From Bdellovibrionales bacterium (GTDB lineage Bacteria > Bdellovibrionota > Bdellovibrionia > Bdellovibrionales > UBA840), in assembly GCA_037969075.1 (NCBI GenBank), contig JBBKWS010000169.1, positions 1 to 11,574 of the forward strand: DNA of 11,574 bases, written 5' to 3'. Shown here piece after piece: positions 9,001-11,574 of the stretch. How positions within the stretch are numbered: position 1 is the first letter of the stretch; every line of letters starts with the position of its first letter. The position numbers were made by a program.

Positions 9001-11574
9001 AAAAATCTATGTTAATCGTGTTGAACTTAAGAGAAGCGGATCAAAAGGTGTTGTGACCATTTCATCTGATGATACAGTTGAAAAGTTTAATGTTGAACAG
9101 CAGTGTAATGGAAGTGTGAAAGCTGAGCTTGTAGAATCACAGGCCGTGTTTGTTTGTAAAGAAGTAATTGATTGTATGCCCAATGCACCGGATAGAGACG
9201 CTAAGTATTGTTCGCAACGATATGTTGAATGGACCAGTGAGAACTGTGACAAAGAAGTTATAGTTATACATTAATTATAAAATAGTTGTAAGGAGGTTGG
9301 AGGTATTATTTAAGTAGAGGCAGCTAGTTGCGATTTTTTCTCTACGTAATAGTTCCAATCACCATCATAGATAACGAGTTGATTTTTATCTAACTCGAAA
9401 ACCTTGGTAGTAAACTCACTTAAAAAATGTCTGTCGTGACTTACTATCATCACCGTACCATCGTAAGTTTTAATGGCTTCAAGTAATACCTCACGAGAGG
9501 CGATGTCTAAATGGTTGGTAGGTTCATCTAAGATAAGTAGGTTAGTAGGGCGGGCTAGAATTTTCGCTAATACCACACGGCTCTTTTCTCCGCCAGATAA
9601 TATAGATACACGTTTGTCGGCTTCATCTCCTGAAAATTTTAAACATCCCAATAAACTTCTTAAGTAACCATTGCTTGCTTGCGGCAGACTGGCCTGCACT
9701 TCTTCAAGTACGGTATTGGCAGGATTTAAAACATCCAATGCGTTTTGACTAAAGTAGCCAATCTCTGTGCTGGCCCCAATTGTAATATTACCTGAAGTTT
9801 CTTCTGTGTGACCTGCTATGATTTTTAAAAGAGTGGATTTACCTGCACCGTTGACCCCGACAACTGCTACTCGGTCCAAGCGTCTAACAAGGGCCGAAGC
9901 GCCAGAGAAAACCAAAGTTTCTTTTTTGTCATTAGACGAGTATATTTTTTTAAGATCTTCAAAAACAACCACATCATTACCGCCTCTAGGTGATTTAGGC
10001 CATTCAAACTTGATGGCCTGCTCTTCCGTAGGGACTTCGATTCGATCAATCTTTTCTAATTTTTTAACTCTTGATTGTACTTGTGCCGCGTGAGAGGCAC
10101 GGGCAGCGAATCTTGCGATAAACTCTTCTTCTTTAGCCAGCATATCATCTTGGCGTTTTGCCGCAGCAATCAATTGTTCTTTTCGAATTTCTCTCTCTTT
10201 TTCGTAAAAATCGTAGTTGCCGCCATATGTTGTTATAGATTTGTTGGCGACTTCAAAGATTTTATTTACAAGCCGGTTCATAAAATAGCGATCATGGCTT
10301 GTCATTAATAGTGCGCCCTTATAATTTTTTATCCACTCTTCTAGCCAAACAATGGATTCTAAATCTAGATGGTTGGTGGGCTCATCCATTAAAAGTACGT
10401 CAGGATTTAGAGTTAAGATTTTGGCAAGGGCGATTCGCATTTTCCAGCCGCCACTAAAAGTAGAAGTGTCACGGTGATGGTCTTCGGGCATGATACGAAG
10501 GCCCGTTAATATTTCTGCAGCTCTTGCGTCTAAATCATAGCCACCCAGACGCTCGAATTCAGTTTGCAGTTCTCCGTAGACTTCAAGAGTCTTCGTCATT
10601 TCATCTTCGCTCATTGGTTCGGCTAATTTTTGTTCTAATTGTAAAAGCTGGTTTTGCAGACCCGTGACTTTGCCAGCTGCGGATTTAACTTCTTCTAAAA
10701 CGGTGCGACCTCCCATTTCTTCGATTTTTTGGGAGAAGTATCCAATCACACACTTGTCAGGTTTAGATACGGTCCCTTCATCAGGACGCTCTTCTGCTAA
10801 AATTAATTTAAAGAGTGTGGTTTTGCCATTGCCGTTGGGCCCAACTAAACCGATCTTTTCACCTGTATTTAGTTGGATGCTTGCATTTTTATATAAAATC
10901 TTTGGGCCGTAATGTTTGGATATATTAGATAAGTGAATCATTAGACTTCAAGTAACATAGAATCTTTGGGGATTCAAAATATTACATGCTATCTACTTCT
11001 CTAACTAGTTCGGGTATACGCTCTAGCTGCATTTTTCCTTGTCGGATCATATCTACAGCCTGTGCTTGAGTGATTTTGTTAGCAGCTATCTTATTACACA
11101 GTTTTGATTCTAGTGGATCAGTGATTTTGTAGACGTTCTTTTCTTGCGGCCATAAATTATCGATTTCATTGCTGCCGCCCATACAAAGAGGGATGTAATG
11201 ATCTATTTTGTAACTACTTCTGCGATGACCTACGGTAAAATCGTATTCATCTTCATATACTTCAATAATATCTGCTTTTAAACTAGAGCTTACGCTTCGC
11301 TCACAATAAGGAATTCTTTCGTTATATCTAAACTCGGTGGGCGTAGTACAAAGACTGCCTGGAGTTAAGTGTTGATCGGGGTGTATTGGGTATGAGCCTA
11401 ATACACTTGCGAAGCTAATAGCTAGACTAACAATAAATAAAGACATTCGTCCTCCAAATAGTCCGGCATTTATGGCGCCGGGTAGAAACGCTGGCCCGTA
11501 TTGCCAGCTTATACTTGGTACTCTTATGGTCTACCGAGCTTATTTAAGTTTTGCAATGAAAAAATTATAGGCTA

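Follow-up and report, generated by a model that had tools for sequence, protein, structure and literature searches.

The window considered here is the complete stretch of 11,574 nt analysed from contig JBBKWS010000169.1 of a Bdellovibrionales bacterium (assembly GCA_037969075.1). Towards its end, on the minus strand, a purine riboswitch directly precedes the gene g02115. The covariance model RF00167 (Purine) matches the aptamer and its flanks at 11439-11536 with 62.9 bits (gathering score 37; E 2.5e-09); the match is untruncated, covers model positions 1-102 and is the sole one in the 2.5-Mb assembly. The ORF g02115 (10982-11446, minus strand) encodes a protein of 154 aa with the N-terminus MSLFIVSLAISFASVLGSY, a small, probably exported HNH-like protein of the ββα type, and its ATG at 11446-11444 starts 7 bases before the last base of the Rfam match. 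An ABC-F gene lies a further 40 nt downstream. The first-pass annotation had reported the same guanine-type riboswitch, score and ORF together with a start codon 8 nt inside the match, all of which were recovered.

The aptamer is organized around a three-way junction on the minus strand. According to the Rfam alignment and the minimum free energy (MFE) fold, the 5' strand of P1, CCAAGUA (11512-11518), pairs with UAUUUGG at 11454-11460, P2 forms the hairpin GCUGGC/GCCAGC with the loop AAUACGG (11490-11508), and P3, which is additionally backed by covariation, forms the hairpin CCGGCG/UGCCGG with the loop CCAUAAA (11463-11481). The GG in L2 and the CC in L3 are presumably the bases of the loop-loop contact, as in the solved xpt aptamer. 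The junction J2-3, GUUUCUAC (11482-11489), is the canonical one of the guanine and adenine classes; sequence and Rfam alignment place U47 at 11488 and U51 at 11484, i.e. U and not C at position 51. Position 74 of purine aptamers reads guanine when it is C and adenine when it is U. In the window it is a C, at 11461 within GACUA, and this C74 is kept in all 104 aptamers examined in the order and in the other orders of the phylum. Every ligand-pocket base of the window aptamer is of the guanine type, including the C74, U47 and U51 that define the guanine subclass, and the aptamer resembles the guanine-I riboswitch (RF00167) of Bacillus subtilis xpt-pbuX in its three-way junction, L2-L3 pairs, U22, U47, U51 and C74.

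Compensatory changes back the three-way junction of P1, P2 and P3. Among 96 distinct aptamers, each position of P2 and P3 is occupied by 3-6 standard pair types. Because the alignment ends are heterogeneous, RNAalifold missed P1 on the MAFFT alignment; in the anchored gapless register used instead, P1 is paired at 0.71, compared with 0.40-0.44 after sliding of the 3' partner, and positions 3-7 show several pair types. The stability of the fold of the whole window leader does not exceed that of shuffled sequences (z -0.41).

The position of this aptamer relative to the ribosome-binding site is the basis for the proposed mechanism. The Shine-Dalgarno (SD) sequence GGAGG (11451-11455, minus strand) lies 4 nt upstream of the AUG, which itself follows P1 by 7 nt, and two of its five bases are inside P1: the last two G of the P1 3' strand are the first two of GGAGG, which bears out the earlier statement that this strand runs into the SD. 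The remaining SD bases and the AUG are held in a mini hairpin, AGGAC-GAAU-GUCUU (11440-11453), which adjoins P1 in both the MFE and the centroid fold. In a same-genus relative the hairpin reads AGGGU-GAAU-GCCUU, a compensatory exchange of A-U for G-C that is seen in these two sequences only. In 97 leaders of nuclease genes, the distance from P1 to the start codon has a median of 8 nt (range -2 to 17) and the SD overlaps the gapless P1 by at least 2 nt in 54 cases; for 88 of 99 leaders, pairing of the SD core is predicted (P >= 0.5). In nearly all riboswitch-nuclease pairs the start codon lies 1-10 nt inside the end of the Rfam match. Between aptamer and ORF no terminator was found in the two leaders scanned, those of the window and of the same-genus relative. 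Hence, transcription attenuation was rejected for the terminator-free minus strand; the only "terminator" called, at 11490-11508, belongs to the plus strand and is P2 read as its reverse complement. At the contig edge, a TATAAT hexamer (11564-11569, minus strand) represents a possible -10 box; the same-genus relative has TGTATT instead, so the hexamer is not conserved there, and a promoter consensus scan gave no match on the minus strand.

With the SD in or abutting the ligand-stabilized helix, a median of 8 nt from P1 to the start codon and a terminator absent from both leaders scanned, a ligand-dependent translational OFF switch is the most likely mechanism, a direction of switching that we infer from this architecture. 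In such a switch, plentiful intracellular guanine (or hypoxanthine) would lock P1, whose 3' strand carries the first SD bases, and the 5-bp hairpin with the rest of the SD and the AUG would stack on it, so that the 30S subunit would be excluded and the nuclease not made. When purine bases are scarce, P1 would open and free the ribosome-binding site, and the nuclease could then be made, exported and used to release nucleotides from foreign nucleic acid. The xpt-pbuX switch of Bacillus subtilis acts through a transcription terminator and controls genes for salvage, transport and synthesis. The proposed logic is alike, a purine base repressing genes for purine acquisition, whereas here there is no terminator in the window or its relative, most leaders have the SD overlapping or adjoining the 3' strand of P1, and the presumed targets are predicted exported nucleases, with one switch in the genome and presumably only g02115 under its control. 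Vibrio vulnificus add acts at the level of translation initiation, as an adenine-responsive (U74) ON switch with a separate expression platform downstream of P1; the window riboswitch would share the translational level of action with it and differ in ligand, direction and platform.

The reverse direction, an ON switch in which guanine derived from prey nucleic acid would signal substrate and induce the nucleases in a feed-forward manner, appears unlikely. It draws on expression data for bd3507 of Bdellovibrio bacteriovorus, a probably riboswitch-linked gene discussed below: in the excerpts of PMC7925074 used here, its transcripts go up in the intracellular growth phase, the time of prey nucleic acid degradation, and its mRNA peaks in mid growth phase. 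As prey purines might be plentiful at that point, an ON switch would account for this peak no less well than an OFF switch, provided that translation is not tuned apart from transcription. The ON reading is also compatible with the 30 of 97 leaders in which the gapless parser detects no SD-P1 overlap, some of which have a bulged, longer P1 (e.g. L030), and with a control in which 5' flanks were swapped between leaders. There, partition-function pairing of the SD with the flank averaged 0.35 with native and 0.32 with swapped flanks, i.e. native and non-native 5' strands were not separated and statistical support was absent; because the 5' strands of the leaders are too alike, this test gives no support either way. 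Against the ON switch speaks the geometry of the leaders, since the SD is contained in the 3' strand of P1 or comes immediately behind it and the AUG follows P1 by a median of 8 nt, so that a separate anti-sequestor helix, to be displaced when P1 forms, would not fit in. Moreover, the ligand-stabilized state of the window leader is predicted to stack P1 on the very hairpin that holds SD and AUG, whereas the known ON purine switches pbuE and add have an expression platform separate from the aptamer.

In the order, RF00167 yielded 93 matches in 57 of 151 genomes. The first downstream ORF was a g02115 homologue in 51 cases, an Endonuclease I (Endonuclease_1) in 22, an EEP nuclease in 9 (6 Exo_endo_phos and 3 Exo_endo_phos_3), an S1/P1 nuclease (S1-P1) in 2 and a PD-(D/E)xK-like protein in 4; four riboswitches precede EamA transporters and one ORF was unreadable at a contig end. 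For these assignments, Pfam was run on 4, 3, 2, 2, 4 and 2 cluster representatives and the other members were placed by blastp clustering at E < 1e-5. Nuclease-class ORFs therefore follow 88 of 93 riboswitches in the order, and in the other orders of the phylum they follow all 11 (10 g02115 homologues and 1 EEP nuclease). Chance adjacency was rejected on these figures (99 of 104), and 98 of the 99 nuclease-class ORFs begin with a hydrophobic N-terminus. Within the order, 59 of 110 members of the g02115 family have no adjacent RF00167 match. The initial count of 22 nuclease genes behind 24 riboswitches is thus strengthened in the larger sample. Some statements derived from it need adjustment. 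The first-pass annotation spoke of four unrelated folds; several nuclease classes are indeed involved, their number is five, and "unrelated" is too strong because Endonuclease I also employs a ββα-metal site, though hhalign finds no sequence relation between it and the g02115 family (probability 1.6%, with only a shared WPQ aligned). Likewise, the claim that the regulon consists of nucleases holds for the 88 of 93 and not for the four EamA transporters, nor for the contig-end riboswitch, whose aptamer is of the same type as those preceding the transporters. The recurrence of one aptamer-on-SD design before Endonuclease I, EEP, S1/P1 and PD-(D/E)xK-like genes nevertheless argues for a purine-foraging nuclease regulon, on which negative feedback by purines would act across the order and the phylum.

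A further possibility is that the ligand is neither guanine nor hypoxanthine but another purine (e.g. xanthine, 2'-deoxyguanosine, 8-oxoguanine or a nucleotide); the regulon would then respond to products of DNA or RNA breakdown instead of base sufficiency. We consider this quite improbable. It gains some weight from the variant specificities that are known inside RF00167, and from the 2'-dG-II class, which reportedly goes back to Weinberg et al. 2017. In the excerpts of PMC8872408 used here, 2'-dG-II riboswitches of Bacteroidetes, which bind a nucleoside, precede genes for endonuclease I, ComEC, phospholipase D and receiver domain proteins. No other published purine-family riboswitches are known to be linked to nucleases. 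The two systems are alike in that a purine-family aptamer stands ahead of genes acting on DNA. The same excerpts describe 2'-dG-II by C51, a G-C pair as the junction-proximal pair of P1 and a two-base insertion in J3/1, in contrast to the aptamers found here in Bdellovibrionota, which have U51, an A-U pair and no insertion. In the window these features are U51, A21-U75 and an uninserted ACU, i.e. the 2'-dG features given in those parts of PMC8872408 are absent. Furthermore, C74 is retained in all nuclease-linked aptamers, as is UUUCUAC with at most one base altered, which speaks against such a different purine.

The assignment of g02115 as a putative nuclease is built on its conserved motif and on sub-threshold matches. 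A signal peptide is predicted at about residues 1-19 (11390-11446, minus strand) from hydropathy and pLDDT; the best N-terminal 10-aa window (residues 3-12) has a mean Kyte-Doolittle value of 2.66, without K/R ahead of the hydrophobic core, while the homologues show K/R, a hydrophobic core and an AxA-like end. The catalytic-type motif DHYIPLCMGGSNEIDNLWPQ (D82-Q101; 11144-11203, minus strand) was located by alignment and model. D82, H83, N93 and N97, previously invariant in 9 homologues, remain so in 46, as do W99, P100 and E113 and also C33 and C48; among the 23 of 46 rows listed, any row in which C88 is replaced by Ser is also without the Cys at 117. These conserved Cys pairs would fit an extracytoplasmic location. 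The AF2 model reported earlier with pLDDT 81.6 is superseded by one from the 46-sequence alignment with pLDDT 90.8 (55-57 over residues 1-20), in which the motif region forms a strand (79-83), a second strand (98-102) and a helix (103-121). The His, as putative general base, and the Asn/Asp/His candidate metal ligands come to lie on this β-β-α unit, as expected for a ββα-metal fold.

For g02115, the earlier Pfam figures were reproduced exactly (HNH_5 E 0.012, Endonuclea_NS_2 E 0.032), HNH follows at E 0.08, and all three stay under the curated cut-offs (HNH_5, PF14279, 16.0 vs 27.5 bits; HNH, PF01844, 13.5 vs 21.4 bits), for which reason we call the protein HNH-like and not a Pfam member. HNH_5 recurs at E <= 0.1 in all 46 family members, at best 6.6e-5, and a profile search of PDB sequences found Cas8f-HNH at E 0.024, aligned on H..PL..GG.....N. 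Foldseek gave no PDB match at E <= 0.001. The former statement that none lies below E 1 does not hold (best E 0.037, Cas8f-HNH, prob 0.85), and HNH domains among the best rows are confirmed, the top 11 being all Cas8-HNH chains. In VIA comparisons, Cas8-HNH reached Z 4.0 and ZRANB3, GVE2 and Gme HNH reached 3.4, values that do not rise above background, and the wide VIA-align search likewise returned nothing above background, its best row (Z 4.1) being a small helical protein on the C-terminal helices. With HNH or ββα-metal nucleases (HNH_5, HNH; Cas8f-HNH, Gme HNH, colicin E9 DNase) g02115 thus has in common the DH...N...N pattern on strand-strand-helix; unlike them it has neither the zinc-binding Cys4 nor the final His, and it adds conserved N-terminal strands, two Cys pairs, a C-terminal three-helix bundle and the predicted signal peptide. 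The HNH assignment hence relies on the motif and on repeated sub-threshold matches and not on a curated family match.

These scores leave a slim prospect that g02115 is exported but serves another purpose, perhaps by binding nucleotides or metals or as a toxin, and has merely kept an HNH-like motif; the purine link would stand in this case too. In its favour, every HNH match is sub-threshold, the top VIA rows are helical bundles on the C-terminal three helices (Z <= 4.1), no NCBIfam model exists for g02115, and the nearest Atlas clusters are named "hypothetical protein"; an NCBIfam match to RelB at E 0.022 was disregarded. It is at odds with invariant residues that make up a ββα-metal motif and fall on strand-strand-helix in the pLDDT 90.8 model, with best Foldseek rows that are HNH domains, and with the same riboswitch design before four families that are clearly or apparently nucleases. 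A probable exported nuclease therefore is the preferred reading of g02115.

Relatives of the riboswitch-linked enzymes have been studied in Bdellovibrio bacteriovorus. Bd3507 and Bd0934 are Endonuclease_1 proteins with signal peptides and are secreted into the bdelloplast according to PMC3593177 and the excerpts of PMC7925074; g02115 belongs to a different, much smaller family. The riboswitch-linked Endonuclease I at locus L003 is identical to CAE78299.1 and is the third of three Endonuclease_1 genes along its chromosome. Table 1 of PMC3593177 lists bd3507 as the third Endonuclease_1 gene along the chromosome, and from this gene order the riboswitch-linked Endonuclease I of the CAE78299.1 genome would be Bd3507. 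Bd0934 and Bd1244 gave no RF00167 match. In the excerpts of PMC7925074, deletion of bd3507 raises extracellular DNase activity, which its authors suggest could be a post-transcriptional compensation; a search for riboswitch terms in PMC7925074 and PMC3593177 gave 0 hits. The genome under study has one phosphorylase-family gene (PNP_UDP_1) and two HGPRTases, enzyme kinds that make or use free guanine. It also contains purF and a purH-like gene and therefore has no obvious dependence on foraged purines; hence, purine auxotrophy as the motive for foraging was not supported.

The textbook role of guanine-class riboswitches is to control purine synthesis, salvage and transport. In this phylum of bacterial predators the same aptamer occurs almost exclusively before predicted exported nucleases of five structural classes, which would mean that foreign nucleic acid is treated as a purine source under end-product feedback. 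Taken together, the analysis supports the earlier reading of a purine-sufficiency switch on nucleases, and we give a probability of roughly two in three to the statement that a canonical guanine-class purine riboswitch, probably acting as an OFF switch with guanine as ligand, controls the translation of a small, presumably exported HNH-like nuclease with a likely role in purine foraging. The broader proposal, that the guanine riboswitch has moved from purine salvage and transport to become a master translational governor of exported nucleases across Bdellovibrionota, is in our view an even call. In the papers found by a literature search, guanine riboswitches were connected neither with Bdellovibrio nor with secreted nucleases, and supplementary tables or Rfam gene-context data may list the link. 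Since 2'-dG-II riboswitches before endonuclease I are already described in the excerpts of PMC8872408, the novelty claimed by the first-pass annotation stands for a new regulon of the canonical guanine class and not for a new principle.

If the proposal is true, one small-molecule feedback loop would set the speed at which prey DNA and RNA are digested. The riboswitch is a candidate regulator for the ordered release of nucleases in Bdellovibrio predation and for the unexplained compensation in nuclease deletion mutants described in the excerpts of PMC7925074; derepression of a riboswitch-gated small HNH-like nuclease would explain the raised extracellular DNase after deletion of Bd3507. CAE79935.1, the B. 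bacteriovorus homologue of g02115, represents an overlooked nuclease candidate in the model strain. Excerpts of PMC11209729 indicate that so far only synthetic riboswitches have been used in Bdellovibrio, for which the aptamer placed directly on the SD would offer a putative, very compact natural translational switch. Finally, the riboswitch would serve as a discovery handle, as it flagged the small DH-N-N family and a 190-aa PD-(D/E)xK-like family as putative exported nucleases.

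The first-pass annotation had placed a guanine riboswitch directly in front of g02115, an ORF of 154 aa with an ATG start at 10982-11446 (minus strand), and the repeated cmscan bears this out, with an RF00167 match at 11439-11536 (minus strand) that scores 62.9 bits where the cut-off lies at 37 (E 2.5e-09). The alignment to RF00167 (Purine) spans model positions 1-102 untruncated and represents the sole Rfam family above the gathering score in the window; the assembly (2.5 Mb in 211 contigs) contains no second RF00167 match. Pairing was taken from the Rfam alignment together with the MFE and centroid folds, and the coordinates, all on the minus strand, were read off the sequence. 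P1 consists of the 5' strand CCAAGUA (11518-11512) and the 3' strand UAUUUGG (11460-11454), followed inwards by the P2 hairpin (11508-11490), the junction J2-3 GUUUCUAC with U47 and U51 (11489-11482), the P3 hairpin (11481-11463) and the junction J3-1 AC (11462-11461) with C74 at 11461, and all pocket positions carry the guanine-class base. The Shine-Dalgarno sequence (SD) GGAGG (11455-11451) is separated by 4 bases from the AUG start codon (11446-11444), the A of which sits 7 bases short of the final base of the Rfam match, and its two 5' bases are included in the last two P1 pairs. In the MFE and centroid folds, the remaining SD and the AUG are taken up by a 5-bp mini hairpin adjoining P1 (AGGAC-GAAU-GUCUU, 11453-11440); the corresponding stretch in G050, a relative of the same genus, reads AGGGU-GAAU-GCCUU, with an A-U pair replaced by G-C, a compensatory change between just these two sequences. 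No terminator was found on the minus strand between aptamer and ORF. A terminator-like call on the plus strand (11490-11508), which recurs in the locus L006, was rejected as a scan artefact that reflects the reverse complement of P2 followed by the A/U-rich J1-2. On its upstream side, the Rfam match begins 38 nt from the contig end, and a candidate -10 element TATAAT at 11569-11564 (minus strand) lies near the contig edge and is not kept in G050.

The RF00167 search was extended to 151 genomes of the Bdellovibrionales and to the genomes from other orders among 151 genomes of the phylum Bdellovibrionota, whereby searches of more than 40 genomes were run with stricter filters and a few weak matches were possibly missed. 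Within the order, 57 of the 151 genomes yielded 93 matches, and another 11 came from 11 genomes of other orders. The first downstream ORF of at least 60 aa, allowed to start up to 12 nt inside the 3' end of the Rfam match, was recorded for each, and these ORFs were grouped by blastp (E < 1e-5) with representatives scanned against Pfam. A nuclease-class gene is situated behind 88 of the 93 riboswitches of the order, namely homologues of g02115 according to the blastp cluster (51, in 49 genomes), Endonuclease_1 (22; four scanned, E 1e-32 to 1e-40), Exo_endo_phos (6; three scanned), Exo_endo_phos_3 (3; two scanned), S1-P1_nuclease (2; two scanned, E 1e-53 and 1e-59) and a 190-aa family without Pfam match (4). 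The remainder comprises four EamA transporters (two scanned) and one locus without ORF (L080), where the contig ends 176 nt downstream and the aptamer is of the EamA-linked type. Outside the order the association holds in 11 of 11 cases (10 homologues of g02115 and one EEP nuclease), and 98 of the 99 riboswitch-linked nuclease-class ORFs have a hydrophobic N-terminal segment.

We read this arrangement, with a probability of about 0.7, as a guanine-dependent translational OFF switch by which purine foraging would be placed under end-product feedback. Across the 97 nuclease leaders that were parsed, the median distance from the gapless P1 end to the start codon (AUG 77, UUG 10, GUG 10) is 8 nt (range -2 to 17). 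The gapless parser finds SD and P1 to overlap by at least 2 nt in 54 leaders (at least 3 nt in 32) and sees no overlap in 30, some of which have a longer, bulged P1 missed by this parser, for example L030 with ACUGCCC/GGGAGU. The partition function predicts a paired SD core (P >= 0.5) for 88 of 99 leaders, but the partner is the 5' flank in no more than 36 leaders; when 5' flanks were exchanged among the leaders, the pairing between SD and 5' flank did not fall (0.32 versus 0.35 in the native leaders), therefore the partition-function test lends no support. An ON switch is improbable, because the nuclease leaders are without any separate platform, even though the growth-phase timing of bd3507 mRNA in Bdellovibrio bacteriovorus (PMC7925074) would speak for it. 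A different platform is found in the EamA-linked leaders (L043, L072, L076 and L091), which carry GUCUCUAC instead of GUUUCUAC in J2-3 and have 38-48 nt before the ORF, including a hairpin apart from the aptamer (CUGAC...GUCAG) that overlaps the start codon; they are possibly ON switches for a purine exporter.

Regarding the ligand of the proposed OFF switch, all 104 aptamers from the order and the rest of the phylum carry C at position 74, and J2-3 of the nuclease-linked aptamers reads UUUCUAC or differs from it by one base. Among 96 distinct aptamers, three to six standard pair types occur per position in P2 and P3. P1 was not called by RNAalifold on the MAFFT alignment of the aptamers; in an anchored gapless register it is 71% paired over nine positions, a value that drops to 40-44% if the 3' strand is shifted by one or two positions, and AU, GU, UA, GC and CG pairs are all present at positions 3-7. 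According to PMC8872408, the 2'-deoxyguanosine classes are characterized by C51, by G-C as the junction pair of P1 and by two bases inserted into J3/1, whereas the window aptamer has none of these three features. That another purine is the ligand is likewise improbable, given that the pocket is fully canonical.

The Pfam values of the first-pass annotation for g02115 could be reproduced exactly (HNH_5 E 0.012, Endonuclea_NS_2 E 0.032); HNH follows with E 0.08, and all three are under the curated cut-offs. In an alignment of 46 homologues with 33-80% identity to g02115, the residues C33, C48, D82, H83, N93, N97, W99, P100 and E113, among others, are invariant. In the 23 of 46 alignment rows displayed, position 88 is Cys or Ser, and the Ser rows are also without Cys at 117, a co-variation as would be expected from a disulfide pair. 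Using this alignment, AF2 gave a model with pLDDT 90.8 and pTM 0.83, of low confidence over residues 1-20, in which the strands 79-83 and 98-102 and the helix 103-121 form a β-β-α unit bearing the invariant residues, with two helices following. HNH_5 matches at E <= 0.1 in 46 of 46 family members (best 6.6e-5) and HNH in 28, all under the gathering score, and a profile search of PDB sequences hit Cas8f-HNH (E 0.024) with the alignment on H..PL..GG.....N. Cas8-HNH chains also fill the 11 best Foldseek rows (best E 0.037, probability 0.85), before Gme HNH, the ZRANB3 HNH, the DNases of colicin E9 and pyocin S2, McrA and Cas9; no Foldseek row reached E <= 0.001, VIA alignment of the model gave nothing above background, and the family is not covered by any NCBIfam model. 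In the ESM-Atlas, the closest clusters come from Bdellovibrionota and bear the name 'hypothetical protein'; in UniRef, the homologue from B. bacteriovorus goes under 'HNH endonuclease' in some entries. As modelled, g02115 is HNH-like, with motif and local fold present and every score below the curated family thresholds. That it is not a nuclease is about as improbable as a different ligand, considering the motif and the nuclease genes with which the riboswitch keeps company.

A profile of the g02115 family picks up 110 members, spread over 90 of the 151 genomes of the order, and no more than 51 of these members are riboswitch-linked. The 59 members without adjoining RF00167 match look like a separate, riboswitch-free branch, because most of them score 100-160 bits against the profile. 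G050 has one linked and one unlinked copy, and the window genome the linked copy only. Two members, G146:C12:121550-121996 and G037:C1:176738-177181, are each interrupted by a single in-frame stop codon (TGA and TAG) and may be pseudogenes or sequencing errors.

The four members of the 190-aa family (L008:1588-2160, L024:923-1510, L031:1933-2508 and L062:1922-2509) are of signal-peptide type, share an invariant GELD...EVKCWKD motif, have no match in Pfam or NCBIfam, and follow a guanine riboswitch in every case. The best of five AF2 models, calculated from a four-sequence alignment, has pLDDT 80.3 and an α-β-β-β-α-β core. Foldseek placed PD-(D/E)xK enzymes on top (MspJI E 7.7e-4, BstEII 1e-3, then EcoT38I, BpuSI, SduA, NucC, McrC and EndoMS), and the top VIA rows were HamA, XisH, PaqCI and McrC (Z 5.9-6.6). 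With moderate confidence, motif, model and structure matches suggest a PD-(D/E)xK-like exported nuclease of restriction-endonuclease fold and a candidate new family.

The window genome encodes purF (394.8 bits, above cut-off), a full-length purH-like gene (413 bits, below the 528-bit cut-off), two HGPRTases and one PNP_UDP_1 phosphorylase-family gene on contigs C26, C102, C69, C142 and C117, hence the organism is no obvious purine auxotroph and is equipped with enzymes of the types by which free guanine is formed and consumed. The assembly-wide search gave no RF00167 match at any of these genes, and g02115 is the sole direct target open to the window riboswitch. An ABC-F ATPase ORF (9310-10941, minus strand, 543 aa, two ABC cassettes by sequence) begins 40 nt beyond the stop codon of g02115, an arrangement that G050 shares; translational control is not expected to reach this gene. 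Further along, a 136-aa ORF at 8864-9274 (plus strand) begins with a stretch resembling a signal peptide and contains several cysteines (MKLKLTAGCLLLSFICSNALA...).

The guanine aptamer class is already known, and translational control based on P1 is a known principle. A full-text literature search, with survey supplements outside its scope, gave no report of the canonical guanine class with an exported-nuclease regulon, which across a predator phylum is new as far as this search shows. The closest precedent is the 2'-dG-II variant class, which PMC8872408 places upstream of endonuclease I, ComEC and phospholipase D.

A link to experimental work is provided by B. bacteriovorus. At L003, the riboswitch-linked Endonuclease I has the same sequence as CAE78299.1, a 'putative secreted nuclease' of strain ATCC 15356, and the g02115 homologue behind the riboswitch at L057:2027-2506 is identical to CAE79935.1. 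In the ATCC 15356 genome, Endonuclease_1 genes lie at 0.887, 1.179 and 3.415 Mb, and only the last of these three has a riboswitch; those of B. bacteriovorus are listed as bd0934, bd1244 and bd3507 (PMC3593177, Table 1), and from the gene order along the chromosome we infer that the riboswitch-linked one is bd3507. According to PMC7925074, Bd3507 is secreted into the bdelloplast, its mRNA has its maximum at 1-2 h, and extracellular DNase is raised in Δbd3507 and still more in Δbd0934 Δbd3507, which its authors regard as compensation, possibly not transcriptional. A term search for the riboswitch in PMC3593177 and PMC7925074 gave 0 hits. The CAE79935.1 gene is absent from the six predicted nuclease genes with expression measurements in PMC7925074, and its product could be the source of the extra DNase in Δbd0934 Δbd3507. 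The raised DNase of the mutants is exactly what guanine feedback on the remaining riboswitch-gated nuclease would predict.
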